Below, piece by piece: positions 7,103 to 58,949 of a stretch of 64,000 nt of DNA. The stretch lies in NCBI GenBank assembly GCA_964414415.1, contig CAYPWJ010000001.1, positions 7,007 through 71,006 on the forward strand, given 5' to 3'. The stretch comes from an uncultured Thermoplasmatales archaeon (GTDB lineage: Archaea > Thermoplasmatota > E2 > UBA202 > DSCA01). Position 1 is the first letter of the stretch. Each line of letters begins with the position of its first letter. The translations under genes were made by a program, and so were the position numbers. The notes under the pieces were generated by a model. The model ran no database searches and was not told the DNA's origin. It worked only from the letters and a program-made list of their open reading frames with translations.

Positions 7103-7176
7103 CACGTCGCTCCAGAAGGCGAAAGCAACATGTTTATATATAACGTATATATTCTTTGTGTGCCGGGATGGGAAGC

Positions 7177-12027: not shown

Positions 12028-12158
12028 TGATCTTTTACGGAATGTACGATAACCTTTATATACCGGGATGGTGTTGTAATAGCATACCACGATAATGATA
12101 GCAAAAAGTTAGCGAAATAGAAAAGAAATATATAAGAAAATATATAAGCTGGGGAGGA

Positions 12159-15100
12159 ATGAATACAATGATGGAAAAAATCGGGAGAATAAAAGGAAAA
12201 GAAGGTGTCTCGGAGATCATCGGCACTGTGCTCTTGCTCGCCATCGCCGTCATCATCTTTTCGTCTTTGATTGTCTATGTGCTCTCAATGGATACCTCGC
12301 CGTCGGCGCCCAGCGTCCACATGGTCGGCTCCATGGATGAAAGCAGCATCGCAACGATAGAGAACAGAGGAGGAAATTCTGTCCCCATCGAGGACCTCAA
12401 GGTAATGATCCGGAAGGGCGACAACCAGAGCCACATCTATAGCGGGGAGGCTCTTTCAGCTATGTTTCATGACACAAACGACAACGGCAGATGGGACGTC
12501 GGTGATTACATCACCGTAAACTGCTCAAAGATATTTTCTGGCGACGTCGCTCGCTGGCAGATATCGGTCGCCGTCATCGACCAGCCCAGCAACGCCATCA
12601 TCATGAGCGGCGTCCTCCAGCAGGGTATCATGCACACCATGCCGCCGGTCGCCCGGTTTACCTACGCCCCCTGGGACCCGAAAACCAAGGAAATTGTCAC
12701 CTTTAACGCCAGCGATTCCTACGACCCTGACGGTGGCTCTCTCCAGTCATACCAGTGGGACTTCGGTGACGGCAACACCGGCAGCGGCATGGTGGTCATG
12801 CATCAATATAATACCTCAGGGAATTACACGATTTCTCTCACCATTACCGACGATGAAGGGCAGACCGCCTCGACGTCCAGTCCGTACGGCGTCCCTGCCG
12901 AAGTCAACGTCACCACTAATCAGAAACCAGTCGCCAACTTCACGTGGACGAACAATACCGGAAAGAATGGCGTCGTGGCATTCACTGACGGCTCCTACGA
13001 CACCGATGGAGAGATTGTTTCTTGGTACTGGAATTTCGGCGATGGAAGCGTCTCCACAGCCCAGAATCCATCCCATTATTACAACCAGAGCGGCACCTAT
13101 ACCGTCACCCTGGCGGTGACCGATGACAACAACGAGACCAATACCACCAGTCTTGATGTAGTGGTTCCAAACCTTGACCCGGAGGCTTTCTTCTCTTACA
13201 GCCCAAGCAATCCTACCACGAAGCATTATGTCTTTTTCGATGGAAGCAACTCGTATGATAGAGATGGCTCCATCCAGAGCTATTCCTGGGATTTGAACGG
13301 CGATGGCGTGTTCGGCGATGCCACCGTGGCAAAACCCTCGACAACCTACGGAAGCACCGGCAACTATACCGTCGGGTTGAAAGTCACCGATGACCTCGGT
13401 GCCACCGACATAGAAACTAAGACTCTTAACGTCAGTTCTCCTATGACCAGCCGAAGCGTGCTGGTTGTAGACAACACCCCCCAGGCGACTGGAGGGAGAG
13501 CCAACTGGGACGGCACCGACAAGATTATTCAGGCGCTTAGCAACCTTGGATTTTCATACTCAACGGGCAAAGCCATTGACAGCTGGCAGTTCGTAGATGG
13601 AACCGAGGCTGGAAAGAACATCACCGCTACATTACTCGACGAATACGACATCGTCATCTGGAGCACAGGCACGTTTCCAGGGGATGGCGGTAGAGCAGCG
13701 GATGACAACAATGACAACACGTGGACCACGTCCATGACTGAGGGCTCCGATGACGAGTCAAATCATGTCTACGAGATTTACCAGCACATGAATCACAATG
13801 GAACGCTCCTTCTCTGTGGCACCTACGCCGTTCGAGACCTCCAAGACTACAGCGGGAATGAGGCAAACCAGGATGAGATATGGCTTGGAAACACCCTGGG
13901 GCTGATAGAAGACACTGGTGGCATCAACGAGGGGTATCACAGCGGCAAAACAGGATACTACGCAACCGATTATTACAACTATCCCTACGATCCTCCTGGT
14001 TCTCCAGGATGGTACTATTCTGGAGAGTTCAGCTACGGCCCCATCCAGGGAAGCGGCGTCATGACAGGGAGAACCGGCACATCCACGGATTCCGACACCT
14101 ACGGCGTCGCGAACGTCGAGATTACGTCGCCTATCGACATGTATGAGCTCAACCCGCAGGGAGGCACGCTCTTCAACTATTCGCTCAACGCCACCGGAGG
14201 AGCCGGCATCGTACTTCAAACAGACTTTGAATCCGGGGCATTTCCCCCAAGCGGCTGGAGTGAACACCGGCTAGAAACTAACAATGGCCCCGGATGGCAA
14301 AAAAACAACCGAGCCGGTGGAGGGCAAAGTGCCTATCACGACCATACTCAACAGGATGATAAAGTCTGCAACGATTGGATAGTAAGTCCACAGTTTACAG
14401 TTCCTCCCGGAGGGGTCTTGGATTTTGAGGAAAAGAATGGGTACATGAACTATTATGATTATCATGGAGTGATGATTTCAACTGGGAGTGGTGATCCAGA
14501 CGATGCAGACTTCACCGAATTACAAGAAATGGATGATGCGACGTTTTGGAATTGGGAAGACCGCAGCATCGATATTAGTTCCTATGCCGGGCAGGATGTT
14601 CATATCGCGTTCCAATATAAAGGCGGAGATGCGGCAATATGGGCAATTGATAACATTGAGGTATCTTCCTCAGCGGATTACATTCGCACTGGAGAATATG
14701 CGATTGATGCCGAGCGTGGCGCCAATCGGTCTGTGGTCACAGGTTTCAACCTGAACTCCGATGCCATCACCAACGAGAGCCGTGAAGCATATCTGCGAAA
14801 CGTCCTCAACTGGATGGCGGAAGGCGTCGGCTACGAGACAGAGGTATATGTGGACAACGACCGATCGACAGAGTGGTACGATGAAACACATCTCCATACC
14901 ATCCAGGAGGGAATAGACGCAGTGAGCTTCGGCGGCACCGTACACGTATATGACGGGGATGCCTACGACGGCGCTGTCATCGATAAGTCCATATCACTCG
15001 TCGGGGAGAACGCGCCAGTGGCACGGAGCAGCGGAGAAGCGGCATTCAAGGTGACTGCAGACTGGGTACAAATCGATGGATTTACGATATACAACAAGGC

Positions 15101-17720
15101 AGGGCAAACGCTTCAGCGGGGAGTCTCCATAGATAGCAGGTCACGGGCAACTATTCTCAACTGCACCATCCATAACACTGGAACGGGCATCTATGCCTAT
15201 CATTCCTCAAATACCACCTTCCAGTCAAACATAATCCACGACGCCGATTATGGCATTCAGATTCAGCGTTCTTCTGGCCTGACTGTTACCAACAATACTC
15301 TCTGGGGCAACTCTCACGGGCTCGCCATGCAGTACACGAGCGGATGTGAGGCGACACAGAATGACATCCATGACAACGACGAAGGTATATACCTCTACGA
15401 GGCCGACGATAGCCGCATCAGGAACAACGACATCTATTCCAATACGGACTACGGAGTCCGTCTGGAGTCAACGCCAACCAACAACTACGTAATCGGAAAC
15501 GATATCTACCAGAATGGATACGGTGTATACCTTGATCTGTCAACACACAACACAATCCAGAACAATCTTGTGACAGGAAATACCAACACTGGTATCCATC
15601 TTACTTCGTCCTCGACGCAAAATACCATCTGGAACAACACGGTTACCGATAACGGCGATGGCATATGGCTGGACAGCTCCGGCAGCAATTCTCTCCTCTC
15701 CAACACGGTAAACCACTCACAGGGAAACGGAATCTATCTCTCTTCAAGCGGCGGCAACGCTCTATACAACAATCAGGTGATGAACAGCGGCAGTGCAGGA
15801 GTCGTCTTCCACGATTCCTCTGACTCGAATATCCTTAAGTTTACAGCCCTCTACAATAACACGTATGGCCTCAAAATTGAAAGATCACGCAACAGCTATG
15901 TGGGGAACAACACACTATGGAGTAATCGCCTTGACGGCGTGTATCTCGCTCGACCTACGGATGGAGCGTACGGCAACAACACCATCTTTAACAACACCAT
16001 CTATCAAAATGTGAGGCATGGTATCCGCCTTTATTCAGCCAGTGGCAATACACTGTCGGATAACATCATCCATTCAAACCAGGAGCACGGTGTCTCTCTC
16101 CAGTCGTCATCTAATGATAACAGCATCAGGAACAATGTCCTGTATAATAATTCCGACGGCGTCTCCATAGACCGGAGCGGCTATAGTCAGGTGGTCAACA
16201 ACAACATCCATAATCACACTGGCCGAGGTATTTCAGTTCAAAACTCTGCATCAGAAAACGATCTGCTTTCTAATACTCTAGAACATAATACAGACGGCAT
16301 CGCTATCCAGTCATCTTCTCTCAACAACATAAGTCACAATCTTGTCCGTGAAAACCAGCAATATGGAATCACTGTGGCAAGTGCAAACACCAACAGCCTC
16401 TATAACAACACCGTACATGCAAACCTGCAGGACGGGATATATATATCTTCCTCAGACGACAATGTCATCAACTCCAATGTGGTCTACGACAACCATTACG
16501 GCCTCCACTTCCTCTCCTGCAGCAGCAACGCCATTAGCAGCAACCATATATATGCCAATGCAGACCACGGAGTATTTCTGGAAAACTCAGAGGCAACGAC
16601 ACCCGGCGGCAACGAGATAGCTACCAATCAAATACACGATAACGGCGGCAGCGGTCTCTATCTCCTTTCTTCGACAGGTAATTCGTTCCATAGCAATAAC
16701 CTCTACAAAAACAGTGACGGCATCCACCTTCGCTCATCTAATAATAACGTCATCTATCTAAACACGGTTCGGCAAAATGAATTCGGAGTCTACCTTCACT
16801 CCTCAGATGGTAACAAAATCGGCGGTGCTTCAGAGGGCGGAAACACCATCTACAACAATACCGGGGACGGCATCTATATTGGTCATTCCTCCGACGGCAA
16901 CACGCTTGATAATAACTCGATTTGGGAAAACGATGTGGGTGTCTTCGTCAATGATTCTGATACTGCGAACATCAAGAATAACCATATATATTGGCATAAC
17001 ACGTCGGCCGGAATTCGCGTCAAAAACGCGTGGCTTGGCTCGTCGTATCCTATCAAGAATAACATGATTCATGGCAACTTGCGGGGGGTTGAGATTATCT
17101 CGTCCAGCAGCTCTCATATAGAGACGCAGAATCTGTTGTATGACAACGAGATAGGTATCTATCTTTTGAATTCCGACACCTGCAAAGTCGGGATGAATGA
17201 TGTTACTTCGGATGTCAGCGGGATCACTATTCTCTCCTCTGATGCCTGTACCATTGACAACAATACCATTCGGGGCTCGCAGTACGGAATCGATGTTAAC
17301 GGGTCGAATGACAACCAGATACAGAAGAACCGCATCGTGAATGCTACCAGGGGTGTCTATCTACATGACGCTGCGGTGAGCAACGTGGTGCGGGAAAACA
17401 CGGTCACTATCAATGCATCCAATCAATACGTGGCATATCTCGCGGGGACGGGCACAGAAAACAACAAGGTATACAGGAATAATTTCTTGAATATATCGAG
17501 TCGGAGCGACAGCCTGGCTTATGATGACGCGGGGAATAATAGCTGGTATAGCTCTGCGACAAAGGCTGAGGGCAATTACTGGAAGAACTACGAGTATCTG
17601 GGGAGATATCAGAATGCCACCGAGAAGGATGGCTATTACTGGAGTATTCCCTATGAGATAGCACCGGAGGATGACACGTCGGTGGTGGAAGACCGACGGC
17701 CGCTTACCGATAAGGTGTAA
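12159..17720 (+). CDS. Giant type IV pilin-like surface protein: class III signal peptide, 3 PKD domains, alpha/beta domain with inserted cleaved-adhesin-like domain, long NosD/CASH beta-helix
   Basis: KGKEG/VSEIIGTVLLLAIAV; W(D/N)FGDG PKD motifs; DFE...WIVSP...HIAF...WAIDNI; many N.I.NN..GI.L repeats; GNYW. Confidence 0.8.
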   Translation: MNTMMEKIGRIKGKEGVSEIIGTVLLLAIAVIIFSSLIVYVLSMDTSPSAPSVHMVGSMDESSIATIENRGGNSVPIEDLKVMIRKGDNQSHIYSGEALSAMFHDTNDNGRWDVGDYITVNCSKIFSGDVARWQISVAVIDQPSNAIIMSGVLQQGIMHTMPPVARFTYAPWDPKTKEIVTFNASDSYDPDGGSLQSYQWDFGDGNTGSGMVVMHQYNTSGNYTISLTITDDEGQTASTSSPYGVPAEVNVTTNQKPVANFTWTNNTGKNGVVAFTDGSYDTDGEIVSWYWNFGDGSVSTAQNPSHYYNQSGTYTVTLAVTDDNNETNTTSLDVVVPNLDPEAFFSYSPSNPTTKHYVFFDGSNSYDRDGSIQSYSWDLNGDGVFGDATVAKPSTTYGSTGNYTVGLKVTDDLGATDIETKTLNVSSPMTSRSVLVVDNTPQATGGRANWDGTDKIIQALSNLGFSYSTGKAIDSWQFVDGTEAGKNITATLLDEYDIVIWSTGTFPGDGGRAADDNNDNTWTTSMTEGSDDESNHVYEIYQHMNHNGTLLLCGTYAVRDLQDYSGNEANQDEIWLGNTLGLIEDTGGINEGYHSGKTGYYATDYYNYPYDPPGSPGWYYSGEFSYGPIQGSGVMTGRTGTSTDSDTYGVANVEITSPIDMYELNPQGGTLFNYSLNATGGAGIVLQTDFESGAFPPSGWSEHRLETNNGPGWQKNNRAGGGQSAYHDHTQQDDKVCNDWIVSPQFTVPPGGVLDFEEKNGYMNYYDYHGVMISTGSGDPDDADFTELQEMDDATFWNWEDRSIDISSYAGQDVHIAFQYKGGDAAIWAIDNIEVSSSADYIRTGEYAIDAERGANRSVVTGFNLNSDAITNESREAYLRNVLNWMAEGVGYETEVYVDNDRSTEWYDETHLHTIQEGIDAVSFGGTVHVYDGDAYDGAVIDKSISLVGENAPVARSSGEAAFKVTADWVQIDGFTIYNKAGQTLQRGVSIDSRSRATILNCTIHNTGTGIYAYHSSNTTFQSNIIHDADYGIQIQRSSGLTVTNNTLWGNSHGLAMQYTSGCEATQNDIHDNDEGIYLYEADDSRIRNNDIYSNTDYGVRLESTPTNNYVIGNDIYQNGYGVYLDLSTHNTIQNNLVTGNTNTGIHLTSSSTQNTIWNNTVTDNGDGIWLDSSGSNSLLSNTVNHSQGNGIYLSSSGGNALYNNQVMNSGSAGVVFHDSSDSNILKFTALYNNTYGLKIERSRNSYVGNNTLWSNRLDGVYLARPTDGAYGNNTIFNNTIYQNVRHGIRLYSASGNTLSDNIIHSNQEHGVSLQSSSNDNSIRNNVLYNNSDGVSIDRSGYSQVVNNNIHNHTGRGISVQNSASENDLLSNTLEHNTDGIAIQSSSLNNISHNLVRENQQYGITVASANTNSLYNNTVHANLQDGIYISSSDDNVINSNVVYDNHYGLHFLSCSSNAISSNHIYANADHGVFLENSEATTPGGNEIATNQIHDNGGSGLYLLSSTGNSFHSNNLYKNSDGIHLRSSNNNVIYLNTVRQNEFGVYLHSSDGNKIGGASEGGNTIYNNTGDGIYIGHSSDGNTLDNNSIWENDVGVFVNDSDTANIKNNHIYWHNTSAGIRVKNAWLGSSYPIKNNMIHGNLRGVEIISSSSSHIETQNLLYDNEIGIYLLNSDTCKVGMNDVTSDVSGITILSSDACTIDNNTIRGSQYGIDVNGSNDNQIQKNRIVNATRGVYLHDAAVSNVVRENTVTINASNQYVAYLAGTGTENNKVYRNNFLNISSRSDSLAYDDAGNNSWYSSATKAEGNYWKNYEYLGRYQNATEKDGYYWSIPYEIAPEDDTSVVEDRRPLTDKV

Positions 17721-17721
17721 C

Positions 17722-20700
17722 ATGCTGCGAAGAGAACTTGGCTGTCTCCTGCTTTCATTAATCCTCATGCTCTCTATTTTTCCGCCGGGAGGAGTCATCC
17801 TCTCCCGTGCCAGCTTCATAGAGGTCGATGCAAGCGGCACTGAGGGTTCCTATACCCGCATCCAGAACGCCATCACAGATGCAGATACTGGAGACACCAT
17901 TTTTGTTCACGATGGCATCTATACGGAAAACGTCGTCATCGATAAACGAGTCACTGTGCAGGGCGAGAGCAAGAGCGGTACCATCATAGATGGCGGTGGA
18001 AAAGGCAACGTGGTCACTATAAACGCCGGTGGAGCTGTCCTTGCTGGAGTCTCTATAAGAAACAGCGGTGCAGGCGACAACGCAGGCGTCCGCTTTGACG
18101 GGGTATCGCAGGCGATGATTACCGACTGCCGGTTGCATGACAATCAATACGGTGTCAGACTGTTCCAAGCAGACTCCATCACCATTACAGAGAACGCCAT
18201 CGTCAATTCATCGTCTACCGGCCTATATATTGGCTCCCACTGCATCGAGGCACTTATCTTTCACAACAACTTTCTCGACAATGGAGATAACGCATTCGAC
18301 GAAGGAACTGACAACCAGTGGTACAATGCCACGCTGCAAGAGGGGAACTACTGGGATAACTACGATGGAAACGATACAGACAACGACGGAATCGGCGACT
18401 CCAATTACCCCATTCCACCGTCGGTGTCCCTGAAATATGATCCCTACCCTTTGATGCATCAATACGCTGGCATCAACATCCTCCACTTGCAGGCGGAGCC
18501 GCAGATACAGGAGCCCGGCCGGCAGGTCAACGTCTCCTGCCGCATCACGAGCTCCGCCGAGGTCAACCACAGCTACATCAACATCACGATGCCCAACGGC
18601 ACGTATCTCAACGCCAGCCTGCAGAGAGAAGGAAACACGAGCAACTACTATTACAGCAGGAGCTACGACGACAAAGGCACCTACCGTTACCGGGTGTGGG
18701 CCAACGACACCAACAACAACTCCATACGGTCGGCAGAAAAAAAATTCGTGGTAGCATACAAACCGAACGCCAGCTTCAGGTATACGCCGTCCAGTCCGAC
18801 GCGCCTCGACGCCGTGACATTCAATGGATCCAACTCGTCCGATCCGGACGGCAGCATCGTCAACTATAGCTGGAGCCTGGGTGACGGCACCACGACATTC
18901 GGTACAACGGTCAGCCACCAATATAGCAGCAACGACACCTTCACCGTGACGCTGACCGTCACCGACAACCACGGCGCCTGGGGCACCAGCAGCCGGAACG
19001 TCACCATCCGCAACATTCCGCCGACGGCTGGTTTCTCGTTTTCACCGGACGATCCAACCGTGGGAGAAACCATCTCCTTCTCTGAAAACGCCTCCGACCC
19101 AGACGGCACCATCGTTAAATATGAATGGAACTTCGGCGACGGTACGACCACCAGCGGAGGAGACATGACACATCCCTCCCACGTCTACCGTCGGAACGGT
19201 GTCTTCAACGTCACGCTGACCGTCACCGACTACGACACCGACACCGACACCGCAAGCCGTGAGATAACCGTCAGGGACGTCGAGTCACCGGTCATTGAGA
19301 ACGTCTCCGCGTTTCCGAATCCACAGGAACGGCACGGCAGAGTAAACATTTCCTGTACCATCATCGACGACGTCGCCGTCAGTGCAGCCAGCGTCGACAT
19401 AGACGGTCCCGGCGTCGACCGCAACGCGAGTATGCACCAGGTTGACGGCACTGCGACGTGGTATTACACCGCGAACTACAGCAGCGAGGGCAATTACACC
19501 TACACGGTATGGACGACCGACCCCAGCGGAAACACAAACCAGAGCCAGCCGCACACGTTCGAGATCATCATCCCTGCAGAGCCGCCGGAGATACACGAGG
19601 TACGGGAGTGGCCAACCACAAAGCAGTACGGCTTTCCGGTCAACATATCAGCCAACGTGACAGACAACGTGCGGGTGGAGACGGTGAGCGCAAACGTGAC
19701 GCTGCCGAACGGCGGCAGCGTGAACCGCAGCATGAGCCCATCCTGTATCGACGACGACTGCAACGGTATCTATTTCTATAACGAAACATATGACATGCTG
19801 GGAGACTACAACTACACCATATGGGCCACCGACATAAACGGCTACGTCAACCATTCCATCAGCCACAGCTTCTCCGTCATTGACACGATGTCCCCGGAGG
19901 TGAATAATCTGACTGTCACGCCCGCGGTGCAGCATCCCAACGAGACGGTCAACGTCTCCTGCACCGCCTCCGACAACCTCCAGGTAGCGAACGTCTCCAT
20001 CATTGTCACCCACGGCAACGACACCGTCGCATCGAAGGAAATGAACACGTCATCCTGCTACTATCTCACGCGGAACTACAGCCAGCGGGGACGCTACAAC
20101 GTCACTGTCACCGCGAGAGACACACGCGGCAACACCGCATCCTTCAGCACTCACTTCAACGTCACCTTCTTCCCGACTGCAAATTTCTCCTACAGCCCGG
20201 CTGTACCGACCAGCCAGGAGACGATAACGTTCAACGACACGAGCACCGACTCCGACGGAGACATTACGGCATGGAACTGGAGCTTCGGCGACGGGAACAC
20301 GAGCACCGTCCAGCAGCCACGCCACAGCTACAGCGCCGACGGCACCTATACCGTCACGTTGACCGTCTGGGACGACGACGGTGCCACCGCCTCCATAGCA
20401 AAGGACATCGAGATACAGAACGTTCCCCCCACCGCCAACTTCACCTACACGCCCGTGCAGCCCACCGACCTCGACGCCGTTGCGTTCAACGCGTCGGCTT
20501 CCACCGACGACGGAGACATCACAGGCTACACCTGGAGCTTCGGCGACAACGAGAGCGGTAACGGCATGACGGCGTCGCATATCTACCCGGACGACGGCAC
20601 CTATACCGTCACGCTGACCGTGACAGACGACGACGGCGCCACGGACAGCTGCAGCCGGAACGTCACCATCGACAACGTGCCACCCGTCGCAGACTTTCAA

Positions 20701-21720
20701 TACCGCGTCTACGAGAGCAATCTCTACATCGCCGTCGAGGACAACGGCTCCCGCGACCCCGACGGCGTCATCGAGGCGTGGCAGTGGAGCTTCGGCGACG
20801 GCACCACGGCAAACGGAACAAGCGCGAGGCATACCTACAGCGAGGCCGGCAGCTACCAGGTGACGCTGCAGGTCACCGACGACGACGGCGCCACAAACAC
20901 CACCTCCATACAGATACCCGTCGGCGTGTTCCTGTCAGCCAACTTCACCCACGAGACAGACCCCGCCTCGGGCGAACCCGTCGCGTTCTACGACAACTCG
21001 TCCAACGCCGCCGCCTGGCAGTGGAGCTTCGGCGACGGTGCCACAAGCAACGAGACGCATCCCTCCCACGTCTACCCGATCGGCAACTACTACAACGTCA
21101 CGCTCACCGTCACCAACGGCAGCAAAAACGCCAGCGTCAGCAAGACAGTCCCGGTCGACACATGCATCCACATCGTCAAAAACGCGGACAACGTCGTCAA
21201 CTATCTCCCGTGGCTGGGCGACGACATCACGGCCTCAGCGCTCGCCGGCGAGATCGGCAGCGACGTGATGCCGGAGGGCAGCGTCGTGAGCCGCTGGAAC
21301 ACAACGCGTGGCGCGTTCGACAGCTACGTCGTCGGCGTGTCTCCATCATCCTACGACTTTATCATTCATCCCTACGACGCCATCGTGCTCCGCGTTGCCT
21401 CATCGGGCACCTACACCGAGCAGGCATACCGGCTGGCGGACCGCCTCGTCCAGTTCTACAAGAACAGCAACAACGTCGTCAACCACATGGTGTGGAGCGA
21501 CGTCACCTCCATCCAGGCCTCGGCGCTCGCCGGCGAGATCGGCAGCGACGTGATGCCGGAGGGCAGCGTCGTGAGCCGCTGGAACACAACGCGTGGCGCG
21601 TTCGACAGCTACGTCGTCGGCGTGTCTCCATCATCCTATGACTTTACCATCCATCCGGGCGACTGCATCGTCCTCCGCGTCGCCCAGTCAGGTCAATATC
21701 AGATAGAGGTGAATCCATGA
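17722..21720 (+). CDS. Secreted NosD beta-helix, Ig-like and multiple-PKD protein with duplicated C-terminal domain
   Basis: Signal peptide; IQNAITDA..GDTIFV..G.Y.ENV.I.K; GNYWDNY.G.D.D.DGIGD; about six W.FGDG-type motifs. Confidence 0.8.
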   Translation: MLRRELGCLLLSLILMLSIFPPGGVILSRASFIEVDASGTEGSYTRIQNAITDADTGDTIFVHDGIYTENVVIDKRVTVQGESKSGTIIDGGGKGNVVTINAGGAVLAGVSIRNSGAGDNAGVRFDGVSQAMITDCRLHDNQYGVRLFQADSITITENAIVNSSSTGLYIGSHCIEALIFHNNFLDNGDNAFDEGTDNQWYNATLQEGNYWDNYDGNDTDNDGIGDSNYPIPPSVSLKYDPYPLMHQYAGINILHLQAEPQIQEPGRQVNVSCRITSSAEVNHSYINITMPNGTYLNASLQREGNTSNYYYSRSYDDKGTYRYRVWANDTNNNSIRSAEKKFVVAYKPNASFRYTPSSPTRLDAVTFNGSNSSDPDGSIVNYSWSLGDGTTTFGTTVSHQYSSNDTFTVTLTVTDNHGAWGTSSRNVTIRNIPPTAGFSFSPDDPTVGETISFSENASDPDGTIVKYEWNFGDGTTTSGGDMTHPSHVYRRNGVFNVTLTVTDYDTDTDTASREITVRDVESPVIENVSAFPNPQERHGRVNISCTIIDDVAVSAASVDIDGPGVDRNASMHQVDGTATWYYTANYSSEGNYTYTVWTTDPSGNTNQSQPHTFEIIIPAEPPEIHEVREWPTTKQYGFPVNISANVTDNVRVETVSANVTLPNGGSVNRSMSPSCIDDDCNGIYFYNETYDMLGDYNYTIWATDINGYVNHSISHSFSVIDTMSPEVNNLTVTPAVQHPNETVNVSCTASDNLQVANVSIIVTHGNDTVASKEMNTSSCYYLTRNYSQRGRYNVTVTARDTRGNTASFSTHFNVTFFPTANFSYSPAVPTSQETITFNDTSTDSDGDITAWNWSFGDGNTSTVQQPRHSYSADGTYTVTLTVWDDDGATASIAKDIEIQNVPPTANFTYTPVQPTDLDAVAFNASASTDDGDITGYTWSFGDNESGNGMTASHIYPDDGTYTVTLTVTDDDGATDSCSRNVTIDNVPPVADFQYRVYESNLYIAVEDNGSRDPDGVIEAWQWSFGDGTTANGTSARHTYSEAGSYQVTLQVTDDDGATNTTSIQIPVGVFLSANFTHETDPASGEPVAFYDNSSNAAAWQWSFGDGATSNETHPSHVYPIGNYYNVTLTVTNGSKNASVSKTVPVDTCIHIVKNADNVVNYLPWLGDDITASALAGEIGSDVMPEGSVVSRWNTTRGAFDSYVVGVSPSSYDFIIHPYDAIVLRVASSGTYTEQAYRLADRLVQFYKNSNNVVNHMVWSDVTSIQASALAGEIGSDVMPEGSVVSRWNTTRGAFDSYVVGVSPSSYDFTIHPGDCIVLRVAQSGQYQIEVNP
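21238..21638 (+). repeat. 116-bp exact intragenic duplication (21238-21353 and 21523-21638)
   Basis: Encodes ALAGEIGSDVMPEGSVVSRWNTTRGAFDSYVVGVSPSSY twice, 285 bp apart. Confidence 0.9.
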
Positions 21721-24260
21721 AAAAAATACAGAGTATAGCGATAGCGATATTGCTCACCGCCAGTGTGCTGCCGCTGCTCCACGAGGTGCAGGCGCTCGAC
21801 CAGCCGTTCCCCGTCACCGGCACCATCACGGACGCCGACGGCGACGCCATCCCGACCGGCGTGCAGGTGACGGTCACCGACGTGGACAAGTCGACCGACA
21901 TGACTGTCTACACCGAGCAAAACGACGGCAGCACCGGCTTCTACCAGGCGGATCTCTTCAACCTGAAAAACTGCGAGGACGGCGACACAATCAAGGTGTC
22001 ATGCACGCATAACGGCGAGACCAACGCCAAGTCGTTCGTCCTCGACGTCACCGACTCGTCGAAAAGCCTCAGCTTCTCGCTCGTCGGCGCACCGGCGGTC
22101 GCCACCGACCCGGCAGCCAGCGTCGGCAGCAGCAGCGCCACACTCAAGGGCAGCCTCGACGACCTCAACGACATCGACACGGGCGAATGCCAGGTCTGGT
22201 TCCAGTACGGCACATCGACATCCTACGGCTCAACAACGGGCAAGCAATGGATGGACAGCACGGGCTCGTTCTCCGAATCGATATCGGGGCTGGATCCCGA
22301 CACGAAATACTGTTACAGGGCCGTCGCAGAGAACAGCCAAAAAAAGAGCTACGGCTCCTCTCAGGATTTCACCACCAGCGCCACCGACCCCACGGTGTCA
22401 ACACGGGAGGCCGACAGCGTCAGCTACGACAGCGCCGTCCTCAACGGCTACCTCGGCAGCCCGGGAGCGAGCACCTGCGACGTGTGGTTCGTCTACGACA
22501 CCACAAACCACGGCAGCTGGCAGGACTACCAGCACAGCACCGGAAAACAGACGACGGCCTCATCCACCTCGTTCTCGGAGTCAATCGAGCAGCTGGTCCT
22601 CGATACCACCTATCACTATCGGGCCGTCGCCGAGAACAGCGCCGGGAAATACGATGCCGGCGACGACAAGACATTCACCACACACGTCGTCGCGCCGTCC
22701 GTCACGACCGACGGCGTCGACCAGCAGAACGTCACGAGCACCAGCGCCACGCTCAGCGCCACGCTGACCGATCTCGGCGGCGAACAGCACTGCGACGTCT
22801 GGTTCGAGTACGGCACCACCGCTTCTTATGGATACGCCACGGTCAATCTCTCGCTTGACGCCACCGGCTCGTTCAACGTCACCGTCACCGGGCTGCAGCC
22901 CGGCACCGCCTATCGCTTCCGCGCCGTCGCCAGGAACAGCCAGGGTACGGCCTACGGCACAGACCTGTCGTTTGTCACACCGGCCACACAGGCCGCCATC
23001 GAGACCAGTTCCGTCGACTACGCCGTCGTCCTCCGGGCCAACGTCACCGACCTCGGCGGCGACGAACACTGCACCGCCTGGTTTGAATACGGGCCCGAGA
23101 CGGGTAACCGTACCAACACGACGCCGCCGCAGACGATATACGAGCCCGGCACGGTCACCGAGGTGCTCACCGGGCTGCAGAGCAACGTCAGCTACCGCTA
23201 CCGCGCCGTCATCAACAACAGCCAGGGTGTCACCTACGGCAGCAACCTCTCCTTCCAGATGCTGTCGCTCCCCAAACCGCCGGCCGTCGAGGATGCCAGC
23301 GCAGCCGTCACCGGGGACAACGTGACCTTCCAGGCACACCTGACCGCGCTCGGCGACAGCTCCTCGTGCTACGTCTGGTTCGAGTACACCGGGGAGCAAC
23401 GGCGGTCCACCGCCCCGCAGCGAGTCAACGGGACAGGCTCGTTCAACGCCACGGTGACCGGCCTGCCGCGGGGGAGCTACAGCTACCGTGCCATCGCCGT
23501 CGGTGACACCGGCCGGATAGCCTACAGCCCGCCGGACAGCGTCGTCGTCGGCGACCAGGACAATGCGCCTCCCTCCATCACGCTTCTCTCGCCCGGCAAC
23601 GATGAAACGGTCACGCTGGACACCTCGCTCCGCGCCTCGGTGAGCGACCCCGACGGCGACCCGGCCACCGTGACCTTCCACCTCAACGGAGCGACAATAG
23701 CCGCCGGCACCGTCCACAACGGGACCACCAGCGTAGCGCCGTCCCTCGAATATGGGGCGACCTACACATGGCATGTCTCCGCGTCGGACGGCCAGAACAC
23801 GACCATCTCCGCAGAGCGGACGTTCTCTACCGCCCCATCCATCACGGTCAACTTCACCCATGCCTTCCCGTTCAAAGGCGAGACAGCCTGGTTCGACGAC
23901 GCCTCCAACGGCGCCATCGCCAGCCGCGAATGGACGTTCGACCACGGAGCGACGGCCGACGGCGCCAACGTCACCCATACCTTCGACACGGCCGGCAGCC
24001 ACACGGTGACGCTCACCGTCACCGACGAATACGGCACCAGTTTTTCCCTGGAGCGAGCGGTGACCGTCTGGCGACGCGGCGACGCCAACATGGACGGCCG
24101 CATCAACGCCCTCGACATCACAGCCGTCGAGCTGGCAATCGAGCATCTCAAGAGTGATTCATCCTACAGCTACCCGCCGCCGGCCGACGTCGACCGAAGC
24201 GGCGACCTCACCAGCCAGGACGTGACCCGTCTCATCGAGACAATTCTTGGGTTGACATGA
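21717..24260 (+). CDS. Secreted FN3-like repeat/PKD protein with C-terminal dockerin
   Basis: About five repeats of A.L...C.VWF.YG...GL...T.Y.YRAVA.NS; PKD; GDANMDGRINALD...ADVDRSGDLTSQD. Confidence 0.8.
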   Translation: MKKIQSIAIAILLTASVLPLLHEVQALDQPFPVTGTITDADGDAIPTGVQVTVTDVDKSTDMTVYTEQNDGSTGFYQADLFNLKNCEDGDTIKVSCTHNGETNAKSFVLDVTDSSKSLSFSLVGAPAVATDPAASVGSSSATLKGSLDDLNDIDTGECQVWFQYGTSTSYGSTTGKQWMDSTGSFSESISGLDPDTKYCYRAVAENSQKKSYGSSQDFTTSATDPTVSTREADSVSYDSAVLNGYLGSPGASTCDVWFVYDTTNHGSWQDYQHSTGKQTTASSTSFSESIEQLVLDTTYHYRAVAENSAGKYDAGDDKTFTTHVVAPSVTTDGVDQQNVTSTSATLSATLTDLGGEQHCDVWFEYGTTASYGYATVNLSLDATGSFNVTVTGLQPGTAYRFRAVARNSQGTAYGTDLSFVTPATQAAIETSSVDYAVVLRANVTDLGGDEHCTAWFEYGPETGNRTNTTPPQTIYEPGTVTEVLTGLQSNVSYRYRAVINNSQGVTYGSNLSFQMLSLPKPPAVEDASAAVTGDNVTFQAHLTALGDSSSCYVWFEYTGEQRRSTAPQRVNGTGSFNATVTGLPRGSYSYRAIAVGDTGRIAYSPPDSVVVGDQDNAPPSITLLSPGNDETVTLDTSLRASVSDPDGDPATVTFHLNGATIAAGTVHNGTTSVAPSLEYGATYTWHVSASDGQNTTISAERTFSTAPSITVNFTHAFPFKGETAWFDDASNGAIASREWTFDHGATADGANVTHTFDTAGSHTVTLTVTDEYGTSFSLERAVTVWRRGDANMDGRINALDITAVELAIEHLKSDSSYSYPPPADVDRSGDLTSQDVTRLIETILGLT

Positions 24261-26629
24261 AAAAACGCGGGCTGCTGCTGGCGCTCCTGCTGCTCACGCC
24301 ATGGCTTGCAGCTGCGGCACCGGCAGCGGACAACGCTACCGTGACGCTCCAGGCACCCTCGATGGTGGTCACCGGCCACAGCATCGCTGTCACCGTCAAC
24401 GTCTCCGGCCTTGAGCATTTCAACGCAGCGAACTACTCCATCGGCTACGACCCCTCGCTCCTCACGGTGGATGCGGTGCACCCCGGCCGGATAGACGGGA
24501 CCGAGATACCGGTGACCTTCAACAGCCAGGGCGGCGTCCTCCACGTCGTCAACGCGCTCAACAGTTCAACCGTGAGCGGCTCAGGACACCTCGCCCGCGT
24601 CACCTTCACCTGCATCGGCAGCGGGACAACCGACCTCTCCATCCAGGGCAACCTCAGCGCCATTGAAAACGGGGAACAGATAGAGCTTCCGGCCACCTGG
24701 GCCGACACCTCGCTGACCTCGACGTCGACCGTGCTGACCGTTGAGGCACCGCAAAGTGTCAGCGACACGTTCACCGCAGCGCTGGCCATCGCGAATGTCA
24801 GCTCCCTCGACAGCTTCAACCTCACTCTCTCCTACAACCAGCACAAGCTTGGCGTCCAGCGCTACAGCAACGGCTCCGTCAACGGCACCACGATAGCTGT
24901 ATCCGGCAGCGACCGCACGGATGACGGCGCACTCAGACTCGTCGGCGTCACTAAGGGGAGCAAGGCGAGCGGCAGCGGCGTCCTGGCACACGTCACGTTC
25001 GTCCCCAAGAACACCGGCACCGCGGTCGTCAACGTCACCGATCCAACGTTTGCGGCAGCCGGCGAAAACGGCAGCGCCATCCCTGTCTACCTCGAGGGTG
25101 CCTCGGTGGTACTGCAAAACACGACCGATCTCCCCCCAGTTGCCTCGATTGGATGGCAGCCCGGGGACCCCGTGACCGGTGACACCGTCATCTTTTCAGC
25201 GGATGGAAGCACCGACGCCGACGGCTGGATAACGAACTACACCTGGAGCATCGACGACACTTCGGCCTTCGGCAACGAAACGAGCCATCATTTCCACAGC
25301 CCCGGCACCTACCAGGTCACGCTCACCGTCACCGACAACGACGGCCTGACCGATACCACCAGCAAAACTGTGACGATTTACAACGCACCGCCCAATGCCT
25401 CGTTTTCGTTCTCTCCGGAGCAACCCGTTGTGGGCCAGGATGTGTCGTTCACCGATACCAGCAGCGACGACAGCGGCATCGTCGCCCGGCAGTGGACATT
25501 CGGCGACGGTGCCACGAGCGGCGAGACAAACCCGTCGCACACCTACAGCGATGACGGCACCTACCAGGTCACGCTCACCGTGACCGACGACGATGCCACG
25601 GACACCTATATGGACAACATCACGGTGACGGCAAACACGCCACCCGGGGCACCCTCGCAGCCCGCCGGCCCGTCATCGGGCACCACCGGCACCTCCTACA
25701 CCTTCACGACGTCGGCGAGCGACCCAGACGGCCACGCCGTGAAATACCGGTTCGACTGGGATGACGCCACGGATACCAGATGGCGCAGCACGTCATCCGC
25801 ATCACATATCTGGAGCACCGCTGGAACGTATAGCGTCCGTGTGAAGGCCAAAGATGCCTACGGAAAGGAAAGCGATTGGTCGCCGTCACTGCAGGTCACC
25901 ATCGAGAAGGTATCGCCGCCCCCACCTCCGGAGCCTCAGCCGCCATCCGCCGATTTTTCGTACAGCGCCGACGGCCGGACCGTGTCCTTCACCGACGAGA
26001 GCAGCAACCCCGACGGCTCCATCGCCACATATACATGGAGCTTCGGAGACGGTGCATCGAGCACCCAGGCCAGCCCCGTGCATACCTACGCCAGCGACGG
26101 CACCTACACCGTCACCCTGTCCGTGACCGACAGCGACGGCATGACCGACGACGTCAGCAGAGAGGTCACCGTCGAGACGCCGGAGCCACAGCGGCCCGAT
26201 CTCACAGTCACAAACATCTCAATGACGCCACCGTCGCCGCAAGATGGAGGCACCGTCCAGATCACCGTAACCGTCGCCAACGTCGGAGCCGCCGATGCAA
26301 ACCAGACCCTGCTGAACCTCTACATGGACGACGCAATAACGGGCTCCATCACGCTGCCAGCCATAGAAGCCGACGGACAGGTCGACAGGACACAGGAGGT
26401 CAACGTCACCGCCGGAAACCACGCCCTGAAGGCGATGGTCGACCCCGACGACACGGTGAAAGAGACGAACGAGAACAACAACCAAAAAACACAGTCATTT
26501 TCGGTGGCCCAAGACGGCCGAGATGACACCGGAGGAGCGTTCCCGTGGCTTATAGGAGCCGTCATCATCGCGGTGCTGGGCGGAGGAGCAGCCGTCTTTT
26601 TCATGTACAGACGGGAGATGCTGCCATGA
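24257..26629 (+). CDS. Membrane-anchored surface protein with two cohesin-like domains, PKD domains and CARDB
   Basis: VTVNVSG...NYSIGYDPSLL.V..V..G...GSGHLARVTF...G, repeated; PDLTV...VDPDD.V.E.NE.NN (CARDB); C-terminal TM followed by RR. Confidence 0.75.
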   Translation: MKKRGLLLALLLLTPWLAAAAPAADNATVTLQAPSMVVTGHSIAVTVNVSGLEHFNAANYSIGYDPSLLTVDAVHPGRIDGTEIPVTFNSQGGVLHVVNALNSSTVSGSGHLARVTFTCIGSGTTDLSIQGNLSAIENGEQIELPATWADTSLTSTSTVLTVEAPQSVSDTFTAALAIANVSSLDSFNLTLSYNQHKLGVQRYSNGSVNGTTIAVSGSDRTDDGALRLVGVTKGSKASGSGVLAHVTFVPKNTGTAVVNVTDPTFAAAGENGSAIPVYLEGASVVLQNTTDLPPVASIGWQPGDPVTGDTVIFSADGSTDADGWITNYTWSIDDTSAFGNETSHHFHSPGTYQVTLTVTDNDGLTDTTSKTVTIYNAPPNASFSFSPEQPVVGQDVSFTDTSSDDSGIVARQWTFGDGATSGETNPSHTYSDDGTYQVTLTVTDDDATDTYMDNITVTANTPPGAPSQPAGPSSGTTGTSYTFTTSASDPDGHAVKYRFDWDDATDTRWRSTSSASHIWSTAGTYSVRVKAKDAYGKESDWSPSLQVTIEKVSPPPPPEPQPPSADFSYSADGRTVSFTDESSNPDGSIATYTWSFGDGASSTQASPVHTYASDGTYTVTLSVTDSDGMTDDVSREVTVETPEPQRPDLTVTNISMTPPSPQDGGTVQITVTVANVGAADANQTLLNLYMDDAITGSITLPAIEADGQVDRTQEVNVTAGNHALKAMVDPDDTVKETNENNNQKTQSFSVAQDGRDDTGGAFPWLIGAVIIAVLGGGAAVFFMYRREMLP

Positions 26630-26709
26630 AACGAAACACGGAGCAGCGGTCATCCAGCAAAACAAATTTTTTCATAAACTTATTTAAACCAGCTACGGTT
26701 AGTCCCCCG

Positions 26710-28002
26710 ATGGGAAAGAACGAGCGCGGGCAGGTCGGCGTGGTGGTGGCCATCCTGATGGTGAGCCTGTTCGTGGCGGTTATCGTCCTGGTCCAGGTCT
26801 ACTATGTCCCCAACTGGATGCGAGATAGAGAGGCGACGCATATGGACACCGTCGCCAACCAGTTCTCGCAGATAAAAGCATCGATAGACATCGAAGCGAT
26901 GGCACAGCGGGACATGTCACTCATCAATTCCATCACGCTGGGCAGCAAGGAGCTTCCGTTTTTCGTTTCAGCGCGTGCATTTGGCTCCCTGAACGTTCTC
27001 TCGACCGCCAACAGCGACTTCGCAGTCGGCATATCGGGCAGCGGGCTTCCCGCGACCAGTATGTCCAGAGACGTTACCGCAAATCAGACCATACAGCACG
27101 TTCGCTCTCTCAGCTCGTTTGACCTCCAGCTTGACATGGCGAACATGAGCGACGGTGAGCGTTTCAACGCCACGGCCGGCGGCGCCACGCTCTCAGTCCT
27201 GGTGACAGGCACCAACGGTTACTGGCAGATCGACCTCACCGTGTCGAACGCATCCGAGCCGGCGGTCTACGACCAGTCGATAGCCTGGATCCCTCAGGGA
27301 GTCACCGCGGGTACCTATTCAGTCAATCTGCTCAGCGACGACTACAAGTTCTCCACTCACGTCCTCCCCTATATCTCCTCGCCGTATAACATGTCGTTCA
27401 CATTCGATCCCTCCACGGCGGCTGGAACCTTCGCCGTCAGCGGCAGCCGGTACGCCGGCGACATGACTGGGATCATGCAGCCAGACTCCATGGGCACCAT
27501 CGAGTACACCTCTGAAAACGCCTACTTCGTCGACCAGACCTACGTCTACGAGGGCGGTGCCGTGGTGCTGAGCCAGTCAGCGGGGCAGGCCGTGATATCC
27601 GCCCCCGGGATAACCGCCAGCAACGTCACCGGCCCGAACGGTGCCAGACACGTCTACGACCTGACAGTGGTGGACGTGGCGGGAGCCGCCGGCAAAAACA
27701 GTGTAAGCGGATACGGCACATATTCAATCAAAACAAACTATTCCTCCACGCGAGCGGATGCCGCCATCGCCAGCAACCTCACCGTGACCATCAATACAAA
27801 CTACCCTGCGGCCTGGGCACGATACATGGAGGGCATGCTCAACCGGTCCGGGATAACCAACTTCGAGGTCGAAGGCAACCAGAGCGAGAGCCGCGTGACC
27901 GTCACCCTCCACGGGCCGCAGACGAACGGCAGCTATGACATCAAGCTCACCGTGAGAAAAATAAACATCAGGGCGCAGGTCGGCCCCGGGTGGATCAGTT
28001 AA
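26710..28002 (+). CDS. Type IV pilin-like protein (class III signal peptide)
   Basis: [16 protein letters not shown]...YYVPNW...E..HM..V..QF; Y.YEGGAV...Q; TATA-like tatttaaa at 26681 supports this start. Confidence 0.72.
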
Positions 28003-30035
28003 TACTCGTTTTCGCTGCTGGGAGCGCTCTGCGTCTGCCCCTGCTGCTTTTGCTTGCGGGGCACCTTGCTGGTCGCCCGTTCTGACTCCAGGTCGACCTT
28101 GCTGACCGCTGACGGCTGCAGCTTCTCGAGCTTCTGCATCAGCTGGTCTTTTTTATCGCCGACCAGGACGTTTTCCAGCACGTCCTTCAGCGTCTCCACC
28201 GGCACGATCTCTATCTGGTCCTTGTACTGGTCCTCGATGAGCACGTCCTGCATGTTCGCCTTGGGGATGAGCACTTTTTTCAGACCGACCTTGGCAGCCG
28301 CCTCGATCTTTGCGGTCACGCCGCCGACGGGCAGCACGGCGCCGTGGACGCTCAGCGACCCGGTCATGCCGACCTCCTGCGACAGCGGTACGTTCTCCAT
28401 CGCCGAAATCACGGCTGTCGCAACCGAGATAGAGGCGGAGTCACCCTCGACACCTTCATAGGTGCCGACGAACTGGATGTGGATGTCCCGTTTCGAGATG
28501 TCCTTCCCCATGTATTTCTTGAGGATAGCAGAGACGTTCTGCACTGCCTCGCTGGCTATCTCGCCCAGGCGACCCGTTGCGATGATCTTACCCTCGGACT
28601 TCGACCCCGCCGGGGTCACCTCGGCGACGATCGGCAAAATCAGGCCTGCAAACTCGCTCATCGACGGGTCGGCGGACATCACCGCGAGGCCGTTCACCGT
28701 GCCGATCTCCGCACCGGCAGTCCTAAACGACTGATAGGTCTTCTTTTTGTCGAGGTAGCGCTCCGCCACCTGTTGCTCCAGCGACGAGGAGAGCTCCTTG
28801 GCTCTGACCACGTGGTCGGCGGTGACAGCGTCGACTTCCTCGCGGACGGCGAGGTCGCCTGCAGCCCGGATCAGTCCGCCGAGCTCCCGCAGGCGCAGCG
28901 ACAGCTTTCCCTTACGGCCAGCGCGACGCTGCGCCTCCCGGATGATCTCGGTGATGGCCGGCCGCTCAAAATGCGGAATCTGGCCGTCCTTGGCGACTTC
29001 CTGCGCCACGAACCTGATGAGCTTCGTCCTGTTCTCGTCGTTGTCCTCCATGTCGCTCTTGATGTATATCTCGTAGCCGTAGCCACGGATGCGGCTTCGC
29101 AATGCCGGGTGCATCCCTTCGACAGCGTCGAGGTTACCCGCGCAGACAAGAATAAAGTCACAGGGAACTGACTCGGTTTTCACCATGGCGCCGCTGCTCC
29201 GCTCCGACTGCCCGGTAATCTGGAATTTTTCCTCCTGGATCGCCGTCAAGAGATGCTGCTGCGACGGCAGGCTCAGCGTGTTGATCTCGTCGATGTACAG
29301 GACGCCGCGATGGGACTTGTGGATGGCGCCTGCCTCGACGCGCAGATGCGGCGGCGTCTCCAGCCCGCCGGCCTGGAACGGGTCATGGCGGACGTCGCCG
29401 AGCAGCGCGCCGCTGTGCGCCGCCGTCGCGTCGACGAACGGCGGAGAATCCTCATCTTCGTGCGACACCAGCAGCTTGGGCACGTCTTTGTCCTCCTGGT
29501 TCTGCATCATGCCGCCGCGTGCCCCGATCAGCCATATCATGGCTGCGGCGATGACACCGAACAGTGCGATGGTTATATTTCCGAGATAGAGCGCAGCCAT
29601 CAGAGAGCCCCCCACGATAAGCGCGAGGATGATGGCCATCATCTGCGACTGCTGCTGCTTGCGCTTCCGCGCCTCGGCTTTCATCGAGTCGACGATGTCT
29701 TTCCCCTTGCCGGCGGGGACGATGCGGACGCGCGGGGTGTTGGGGTCATCCTGGTTGGGATAGGTGAGGATGTCCTCGAGCTCCTCGGTGGGCAGGAACT
29801 CGGTCATCGCACGGGCGATCATGGATTTCCCGGTGCCCGGGTCGCCGATGAGCATGACATGGCGCTTCTGCCGGGCGGCCTGCCGGACAACGTCGACGGC
29901 GTGGTCCTGCCCGATGACCTGTTCCATTAGCGTGTCCGGTATCTCGATGTCCTCCGAGGATTCGACGTCCTGCTCCTGCATCCAGTCGTCTATCGGCGGA
30001 AGCTCCTCTACCCGTTCCTCTTCTTCAACTGCCAC
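27999..30035 (-). CDS. lonB: Archaeal ATP-dependent protease LonB
   Basis: [10 protein letters not shown] insertion, [20 protein letters not shown] and GGVTAK Ser-Lys dyad. Confidence 0.96.
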
Positions 30036-39048: not shown

Positions 39049-39094
39049 TTCCTCACTTCCTACAATAAGCATGGCCTTAAAAATGTATCCGTGG

Positions 39095-58948: not shown

Positions 58949-58949
58949 G

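Follow-up and report, generated by a model that had tools for sequence, protein, structure and literature searches.

The closest described system for a cohesin-dockerin pair is the cellulosome of Clostridia, and here we compare with it, and with several type IV filament systems, a block of five genes (g1 to g5) from an uncultured Thermoplasmatales archaeon. The block lies in a stretch of 64,000 nucleotides (contig CAYPWJ010000001.1 of assembly GCA_964414415.1, positions 7,007 to 71,006), which we call the window and whose coordinates are used unless a contig or locus is named. It joins known kinds of parts, type IV pilin-like proteins and a cohesin-dockerin pair, in a non-cellulosomal surface assembly. 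What it has in common with the cellulosome is a type I dockerin with two calcium loops, a surface-anchored protein with more than one distal cohesin, the adjacency of the dockerin and cohesin genes and, in one genus of relatives, a dockerin-ending adaptor in the slot of g4. It differs in that there is no glycoside hydrolase (GH) or carbohydrate-binding module (CBM), in an anchor that is a C-terminal membrane helix instead of an SLH domain or a sortase signal, in having two cohesins only, in a dockerin cargo that is a chain of FN3, immunoglobulin-like (Ig) and PKD modules, and in the setting of the genes between those for pilin-like proteins. We lean towards the reading that the five genes form an operon which builds a glycosylated, non-enzymatic surface assembly from two docking principles, most likely a sticky cell-surface structure and not a cellulose-degrading machine.

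Non-cellulosomal cohesins and dockerins have been described from archaea such as Archaeoglobus fulgidus and the anaerobic methanotrophic archaea (ANME), where, in the part of the report available to us, their role is called unclear and the attachment of exterior proteins or cell-cell adhesion is proposed (PMC9012536). NosD-like proteins beside dockerin domains have been put forward as adhesion factors (PMC13452462, from the accessible text). The pair described here is likewise archaeal and not linked to cellulose; as far as the accessible text of those reports goes, however, they deal with variable repertoires and substrate-binding cargo, whereas the present pair is fixed, single-copy and order-wide, within a pilin-flanked operon.

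Among bacterial type IV pili, the minor-pilin/PilY1 tips and the modular pilins PilB and PilC of Streptococcus sanguinis come closest, since in them, as in the block, a pilin N-terminus is fused to bulky adhesive modules, and accessory pilins are encoded with large non-pilin adhesins and away from the major pilin. Neither is known to include a cohesin-dockerin pair. The genes at hand are unlike them in belonging to the archaeal Pilin_N and DUF7289 families and in the passenger of about 1700 residues on g1, and the structural match is at noise level (g5 head against the S. sanguinis PilC lectin module, 7oa7: Z 6.7, root-mean-square deviation 3.3, 116 aligned).

For archaea, a survey of class III (pilin-type) signals reports them, in its accessible part, on large functional proteins that are not filaments, long beta-helical ones included, with the type IV filament machinery encoded elsewhere (PMC13705601); its main text contains neither the word "cohesin" nor the word "dockerin". 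The Sulfolobales bindosome and its class III binding proteins fit this description, with class III signals on large proteins and machinery elsewhere. They are unlike the present block in that no solute-binding family is matched in g1 or g5, and the neighbours here are SMC-ScpAB and LonB, with no ABC transporter. Archaeal type IV pilus loci often hold large predicted adhesins and membrane-anchored proteins, according to the accessible part of PMC4858521, in whose main text "cohesin" occurs 0 times. Our literature searches, which covered the papers proper and not their supplements, turned up no paper describing the g1 to g5 operon and none containing the term "DUF7289", and a word search of the accessible text of two Thermoprofundales genome papers (PMC9585477, PMC6461988) gave 0 occurrences of "cohesin" or "dockerin".

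Layout of the block and its products

A sequence-only reading of this DNA had described five co-oriented genes at 12159 to 28002, the first four abutting or overlapping. The open reading frame listing and translations bear this out, and the features are as follows.

12028 to 12158, + strand: intergenic region of 131 bp, AT-rich, 5' of g1; putative operon promoter
12159 to 17720, + strand: g1, modular pilin-like protein, 1853 amino acids (aa); Pilin_N at 12201 to 12416
17722 to 21720, + strand: g2, secreted protein of about 1330 aa with a Sec-type signal; NosD, PKD and a twin C-terminal domain
21717 to 24260, + strand: g3, secreted protein, 847 aa; dockerin at 24078 to 24248
24257 to 26629, + strand: g4, anchoring scaffoldin, 790 aa; cohesins at 24338 to 24688 and 24728 to 25066
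26710 to 28002, + strand: g5, DUF7289 pilin-like protein, 430 aa; class III signal and DUF7289
27999 to 30035, - strand: LonB protease gene, convergent with g5 and with overlapping stop codons; a synteny marker and not a functional part

All four junctions are tight, with start and stop codons that adjoin or overlap. The stop codon of g1 (TAA, 17718-17720) is followed after one base by an ATG at 17722 (TAAcATG, 17718-17724), which is most likely the start of g2, whose open frame reaches back to 17671. ATGA overlaps join g2 to g3 at 21717 and g3 to g4 at 24257. A third ATGA, at 26626, lies on the stop codon of g4 and offers an alternative start for g5; the g5 open frame as a whole spans 26545-28002, and the portion kept in relatives begins at the ATG at 26710. 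The region in front of g1 contains TATA-like motifs (TTTATATA at 12055-12062 and ATATATAA-type repeats at 12127-12149), with GGGGAGG immediately 5' of the g1 start, and could serve as the promoter of the operon. Because of this spacing, and of the conservation described below, g1 to g5 would form a single operon. The density of N-x-S/T sequons, 1.9-4.5 per 100 aa in g1 to g5 vs. 0-0.44 in SMC, ScpA, ScpB and LonB, fits secreted glycoproteins. An S-layer (surface-layer) protein family was considered for these products and rejected, as Pfam and NCBIfam scans gave no match.

The dockerin protein and its putative partner are g3 and g4, both of which exceed the curated cut-offs of the respective profile models. 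As had been proposed from the letters alone, g3 is an FN3/PKD protein ending in a dockerin (Dockerin_1, 31.6 bits, cut-off 22.9; fn3, 31.7 bits; PKD). It consists of a signal peptide, an N-terminal beta domain, five FN3-like repeats sharing a conserved C..VWFEYG motif, an Ig-like domain, a PKD domain and a C-terminal type I dockerin with two 12-residue calcium-loop motifs, DANMDGRINALD and DVDRSGDLTSQD. Residues D789, D793, N797, D800, D824 and D835 are invariant in 12 orthologues, over which mean column identity of the protein is 63%, and the dockerin aligns to solved cellulosomal dockerins (4fl4_A, E-value 2.8e-4; 1ohz_B, E-value 1.4e-3). The description of g4 as a membrane-anchored protein with two cohesins likewise stands: Cohesin (PF00963) scores 57.3 bits (cut-off 24.1) in two stretches, which reach 48.1 and 31.2 bits in the genome-wide scan. 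The signal peptide and the two cohesins of g4 are followed by a stalk of four PKD domains, a CARDB domain (71 bits), a C-terminal membrane helix and a basic tail. On the DNA the hydrophobic helix lies at about 26540-26605, ahead of an RRE tail, and 10/10 aligned orthologues end, like g4, in such a helix and a basic tail. Pfam and NCBIfam scans matched no SLH or sortase signal in g4; an archaeosortase PGF-CTERM anchor was also considered and rejected, with no NCBIfam match and no PGF motif in the sequence. A complex prediction of g4 residues 27-292 with g3 residues 778-847 scored 0.14 against a mark of 0.32, which speaks neither for nor against binding.

Dockerins are found in four proteins of the genome; besides g3, these are a PKD/Ig protein of 853 aa, a giant of 3558 aa and a DUF11 protein of 1540 aa. 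Cohesins likewise occur in four, namely g4, a protein of 901 aa that has two of them and a membrane helix at its C-terminus, one of 368 aa, and one of 907 aa with a zinc-finger tail. In its pattern the g3 dockerin stands apart from the other three. Identity of the g4 cohesins to the genome's other four is 17-24%, and those four are 21-41% identical to one another. Two specificity groups are thereby suggested, with g3 and g4 as a candidate dedicated pair. The other proteins mostly lie together at a second locus on contig C12 (L001:1574-18848), where the genes for the 853-aa dockerin protein and the 3558-aa giant are directly followed by that for the 901-aa two-cohesin protein and then by that for the 368-aa one; among the matches listed, at least five relatives also have a cohesin gene behind a giant dockerin gene (G019:C35, G030:C3, G035:C8, G023:C21, G026:C79). 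The 907-aa protein is encoded on contig C4 (L003:2928-5651, - strand) and has one cohesin, four PKD domains, CARDB and a RING/zinc-finger-like C-terminal tail (Prok-RING_1, 24.9 bits, below the cut-off of 29.1), so that, going by its domains, it could join a surface cohesin to a cytoplasmic zinc finger.

The two remaining large proteins are dominated by beta-helices and repeats. For g1, a 1853-aa protein with a class III signal had been claimed, and Pilin_N is indeed matched (52.0 bits, cut-off 25.2). The signal is KEG/VSEIIGTVLLLAIAVIIF (the slash marks the cleavage site) and leads into a pilin domain of about 150 aa; the motif [KRN]x[GA]/VSE..GT..LL is conserved in 15 sequences, g1 and 14 homologues, aligned over their first ~160 residues. 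Then come three PKD domains, a stretch of ~250 aa without a family, a choice-of-anchor-J domain (67 bits) and a right-handed beta-helix of ~900 aa (NosD 362 bits, Beta_helix 341 bits), in which 14 parallel beta-helix repeats are matched. With a GC content of 0.50, and of 0.48 over the beta-helix, g1 departs from the genome at 0.596, and it is 50% identical over 1632 aa to its counterpart in G019, of the other, low-GC family, vs. 43% over 1913 aa in G002, of the same genus. The deviant GC content and the closer match to the other family suggest that the passenger cassette of g1 has been independently swapped between lineages.

The predicted NosD/PKD protein of 1.3k aa is g2 (NosD 52 bits, seven PKD_4). 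Its Sec-type signal is followed by a short NosD-like beta-helix, Ig-like domains, seven PKD domains and, at the C-terminus (21178-21717), two copies of a domain of ~90 residues each without a Pfam family, which we call KN and which has the consensus KNxxNVVNYxPW...GSVxSxWNxxxGxFDSYVVGxSPxxYDF...LRV. A high-confidence model shows KN as a small unit of the alpha/beta type (predicted local distance difference test score, pLDDT, of 90.1 for the whole g2 C-terminal model). In a fold search with that model the matches listed were taken up by its PKD domain (residues 1-70), and an ESM Atlas look-up of the g2 tail gave only PKD clusters. Within its own genome KN occurs in g2 only, and its homologues are nearly all g2 orthologues; three weak matches (E-values from 3e-11 to 6e-4) fall in large secreted proteins of other kinds, and two of these have a C11 or C25 peptidase domain. 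In one relative, G009, g2 ends in CARDB and a membrane helix in place of KN, which suggests that KN normally serves to retain g2 at the surface.

The beta-helices raise the question as to whether the block is degradative after all, with the NosD/pectate-lyase-fold helices of g1 and g2 acting as polysaccharide lyases or hydrolases in a cellulosome-like complex that cohesin and dockerin would hold at the surface for the digestion of polymers outside the cell. Large right-handed beta-helices such as that of g1 would suit this, as would two sub-threshold matches (a rhamnogalacturonase/epimerase family at 24.7 bits, cut-off 27, and AlgG at 38 bits, cut-off 700), the classically degradative use of cohesin-dockerin architecture, and the secreted peptidases, for example of the C25 family, that the genome encodes. 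We nevertheless consider such a complex very unlikely. The earlier remark that no glycoside hydrolase domain is visible extends to lyases and CBMs, none of which passes its cut-off in g1 to g5, and no GH, polysaccharide lyase or CBM family does so in the genome's other three dockerin proteins; none of the genome's dockerin or cohesin proteins carries an enzyme domain above cut-off. Neither g1 nor g2 has a dockerin, and g3, which alone in the block has one, is built from FN3, Ig and PKD modules and is unusually conserved for a substrate-facing enzyme carrier. Since no enzyme is borne on a dockerin, the block is not a cellulosome, and a cellulosome proper was rejected.

Conservation of the gene order among relatives

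To place the block, 40 relatives were compared together with its own genome (G000), 41 genomes in all, and the open reading frames of fetched loci were compared with the window proteins by BLASTP. The relatives are uncultured Thermoplasmatota from vents, subsurface fluids and sediments; some of their isolates are, we presume, classed with the DHVEG-1/MBG-D lineage. A g5 gene is present in 37/41 genomes, a cohesin in 37/41 and a dockerin in 36/41. In at least 25/41 genomes a g3-type dockerin gene lies no more than 500 nt upstream of a cohesin gene on the same strand, with many contigs ending there, and g4 is followed by g5 on one contig in at least 12/41. Wherever fetched loci reach far enough, the upstream genes follow suit: g2 precedes g3 in 10/10 loci with at least 400 nt upstream of g3, and g1 precedes g2 in 7/7 with sequence upstream of g2. 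The full order g1-g2-g3-g4-g5-LonB is found in G002 (same genus, with ScpB upstream), in G013, G019 and G024 (the other family) and in G010, where g1 is cut by the contig end; G012 has g2 to g5, and partial blocks occur where contigs are short.

The synteny across Thermoplasmatota that the sequence-only reading would lead one to look for is therefore found, in that the same gene order occurs in two families of the order. Because this order recurs at 35-75% protein identity (35-50% at the lower end, across the two families), the arrangement is not due to chance. It is kept although GC content, about 0.6 here, is about 0.32 in the other family, and the block stays by LonB while SMC-ScpAB switches to the other side of LonB there. 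Full-length g3 orthologues are present in 9/12 and 21/25 genomes of the two main families of the order; the other families in a 150-genome sample of the class gave no full-length g3, only partial matches to the FN3 repeats.

Several relatives depart from this pattern. In G016, g5 stands alone before LonB, with g3-g4 on another contig; in G009 (L029, C5) there is no g3 or g4 at the locus, and the g2 with CARDB and a membrane helix mentioned above is a fusion of 2030 aa; and in G015, which is 97% complete, g5 is present and no cohesin or dockerin is matched. The coupling of the pilin-like genes with the cohesin-dockerin genes is thus frequent but not obligatory. In one genus (G029 and G036; L053, L028), the g4 slot is taken by an adaptor of ~407 aa with a cohesin-like domain, PKD and a dockerin. 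In G024 (L020, C2, 2823-6698, - strand), g4 and g5 form one open frame of 1291 aa, in which the membrane helix and tail of g4 run straight into the MNRKG/QVG signal of g5. With the KG/Q cleavage site inside the fusion, cleavage would still separate the two products; the fusion could also be a sequencing or assembly artefact.

The departures in G016, G009 and G015, together with the signs of independent cassette exchange in g1, would be expected if large surface-protein genes were merely clustered here as neighbours, with no joint function and no physical complex. This strikes us as highly improbable, given the abutting or overlapping codons at all four junctions, an order kept across two families despite the low identity and the shift in GC content, the complementary modules of g3 and g4, and the single open frame of g4 and g5 in G024.

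Pilin-like genes and filament machinery

The last gene had been taken for a second pilin-like gene, and its product does match DUF7289 (PF23960, 32.4 bits, cut-off 27) behind a class III signal. The signal motif KG/QVG is invariant or nearly so in 12 orthologues, as are the QVG..VAIL core and many of the helix positions that follow. An AlphaFold2 model built on the orthologue alignment (pLDDT 83.7, predicted template-modelling score 0.71) places a helix at residues 5-65 ahead of beta-rich domains, and by this model g5 has the build of a pilin, a long N-terminal helix with a beta-rich head. Foldseek found nothing in the PDB at an E-value of 0.001 or below with the g5 model, a profile of the 12 orthologues had 0 matches to PDB sequences at E-values of 1 or below, and an NCBIfam scan of g5 gave nothing meaningful. 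The 74 g5 relatives retrieved are all from Thermoplasmatota and all named "hypothetical" or "DUF7289", and 72/74 carry a precomputed DUF7289 match. Both g1 (KEG/VSEIIGTVLLL) and g5 have a class III site followed by a hydrophobic helix. Genome-wide regular expressions after the FlaFind motif rule [KRDE][GA][ALIFQMVED][ILMVTAS] are crude; they picked out g1, g5 and a few doubtful open reading frames, for example C4:81083-81643, and in their strict form missed g1.

A search for a pilus ATPase, a platform protein and a prepilin peptidase in the rest of the genome found PilB/PilC and two A24 peptidases. Contig C2 encodes a KaiC-like protein, a KaiC-like/GTPase protein, a T2SSF protein and a T2SSE protein with a PilB3_C end; contig C6 has a second T2SSE ATPase beside an A24 peptidase, and the other A24 peptidase is on C3. 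The contig C6 ATPase (751 aa) and, next to it, a 733-aa protein without a Pfam match are encoded at L004:9791-14001 on the + strand; the 733-aa protein is possibly a divergent platform protein. On the same contig, a C25 (gingipain-family) peptidase with a propeptide (L004:2433-4958, - strand) is encoded ~2.7 kb from the A24 prepilin peptidase (7641-8486, - strand).

More distant Thermoplasmatota offer a link between these genes and the machinery. In nine loci (L059, L060, L063, L066, L067, L070, L073, L075, L081), PilB and/or PilC are encoded beside a g5-like gene. In eight of them PilB and/or PilC are followed by a Pilin_N protein and then directly by the g5 homologue, and in the ninth, L075, the g5 homologue directly precedes PilB-PilC. 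The Pilin_N proteins of the eight loci match g1 over their N-terminal ~150 residues and range from 146 to about 1190 aa, so that the conserved part is the pilin domain of g1. The distant g5 homologues are shorter than g5, about 280-310 aa, or 460 aa in L075. Pfam scans of three distant loci confirmed T2SSE, T2SSF, Pilin_N and DUF7289, and in five further distant loci two KaiC-like genes follow the g5 homologue. Because homologues of the g1 pilin domain and of g5 lie directly behind PilB-PilC in these genomes, we read the two as type IV filament components, and in our reading they would descend from the pilin pair of a PilBC operon, with g2 to g4 lying between them in this order. A small standalone Pilin_N pilin of 140-190 aa, encoded separately, is present in 33/40 relatives, including 4/4 genomes of the same genus.

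Distant g1- and g5-like loci also recall the CdiP/Aap-type pili. The CdiP pilus of Thermoplasmatales has, according to the accessible part of its description (PMC12448462), two ATPases, a split platform and pilin genes that can lie far from the machinery. The distant loci likewise have two ATPase genes and a platform gene of ~296 aa, whose product matches only the C-terminal part of the 576-aa PilC, resembling the split platform of CdiP. The likeness concerns the machinery and its layout; the CdiP pilins are small (CdiPB, 135 aa).

Proposed assembly and its significance

How the five products might work together can be set out as follows. An A24 prepilin peptidase would cut the class III signals off g1 and g5, and their hydrophobic N-terminal helices would be served by the PilB/PilC machinery, whose genes are on other contigs. 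Most likely, g1 and g5 would be minor pilins or tip pilins in a pilus with a small, separately encoded major pilin, or would form a short stalk, with g1 exposing its passenger of ~1700 residues (PKD, choice-of-anchor-J and beta-helix) as the adhesive part. At the cell, g4 would be held in the membrane by its C-terminal helix, with its two cohesins at the far end of the PKD/CARDB stalk; g3 would dock onto these cohesins by its dockerin, in a calcium-dependent manner, and extend its FN3-like chain. The secreted g2 would probably be held at the surface by its twin C-terminal domains. Incorporation into a filament, binding of g3 to g4 and an adhesive or scaffolding role are all predictions from sequence.

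The sequence-only reading had arrived at a modular adhesion or scaffolding system combining a type IV filament with cohesin-dockerin docking. The cohesin, dockerin and pilin matches and the synteny support it in part, and its pilus side gains strength from the PilB/PilC neighbourhoods of distant relatives; the coupling of the two parts, on the other hand, is not universal. Several observations weigh against the assembly proposed above. Besides the three genomes in which the modules are apart or missing, genes for PilB/PilC or a prepilin peptidase are absent from the window and from the vicinity of the block in every genome of this order that was examined. The organism's own assembly, at 92.9% completeness, has no small standalone Pilin_N pilin, g1 being the only match; that pilin may be unassembled or lost. 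At 1853 aa, g1 is too large for a regular filament subunit, and its place in any filament is therefore conjecture. A phmmer comparison of the g4 cohesins with PDB sequences gave 0 matches at E-values of 0.01 or below, and a wide VIA-align comparison of the g5 model covers only residues 116-247, as a concanavalin A/galectin-like jelly roll with Z 5.5-7.8, within the noise range of the tool.

The missing linkage to PilB/PilC, the missing small pilin and the size of g1 would all be accommodated by a membrane-bound surface coat without a filament, for which the class III N-termini of g1 and g5 would be only cleavable anchors or export signals, a role that has been proposed for proteins of the bindosome type. 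The five proteins, with the genome's other cohesin and dockerin proteins, would then make up a disordered glycoprotein layer in place of an S-layer. The genome's three additional membrane-anchored or secreted cohesin proteins and three additional dockerin proteins, all made of Ig, PKD and DUF11 modules, would fit such a coat, as would the high sequon density of g1 to g5. Cultured Thermoplasmatales have been described, in the accessible part of PMC12448462, as lacking an S-layer and having an unordered protein layer of ~20 nm, and non-pilin proteins with class III signals, some of them long and beta-helical, occur widely among archaea according to the accessible part of PMC13705601. We regard a coat without a filament as possible but unlikely, as g5 has the full build of a pilin, with a helix of ~60 residues and a nearly invariant extramembrane part, homologues of g5 and of the g1 pilin domain are partners in PilB/PilC operons of distant relatives, PilB/PilC are kept in the organism's own genome, and small pilins are present in most relatives.

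The non-enzymatic assembly with type IV filament components therefore remains the reading towards which we lean. A more elaborate version of it is a hybrid organelle, as yet undescribed, of a widespread lineage of uncultured Thermoplasmatota from sediments and vents, in which a filament primed or tipped by g5 and g1 would be tied, via g2 and the g3-g4 bridge, into a membrane-anchored glycoprotein coat that replaces the S-layer. We hold this to be speculative and quite improbable. If true, it would make cohesin-dockerin docking a structural element of an archaeal pilus apparatus, and the twin KN domain of g2 would represent a new kind of module for surface retention, one that secreted C11 and C25 peptidases use as well.

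Around the block, SMC, ScpA and ScpB are encoded upstream (7156-12027), and the window also encodes a split RNA polymerase A'' subunit, L10P, L1 and LonB, which are archaeal markers. Further along, a heliorhodopsin gene (Pfam, 328.9 bits) lies near genes for a lycopene cyclase, a phytoene synthase and a phytoene-desaturase-type oxidoreductase (58271-61275 and 63210-63977, - strand), likely a retinal-pigment cluster, and a 371-aa protein with a zinc ribbon and a bacterial TSP3 (thrombospondin type 3) repeat is encoded at 38161-39276 on the - strand.

Being single-copy and order-wide, and encoding five surface proteins open to heavy glycosylation, the operon is a strong candidate for a core part of the envelope, or of the means of attachment, in these archaea. 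With one dockerin, two cohesins and one membrane anchor, it places archaeal cohesin-dockerin pairs in a defined setting that can be tested, and it would broaden the notion of "functionalised" type IV filaments beyond solute-binding proteins, to adhesin-like passengers of large size.

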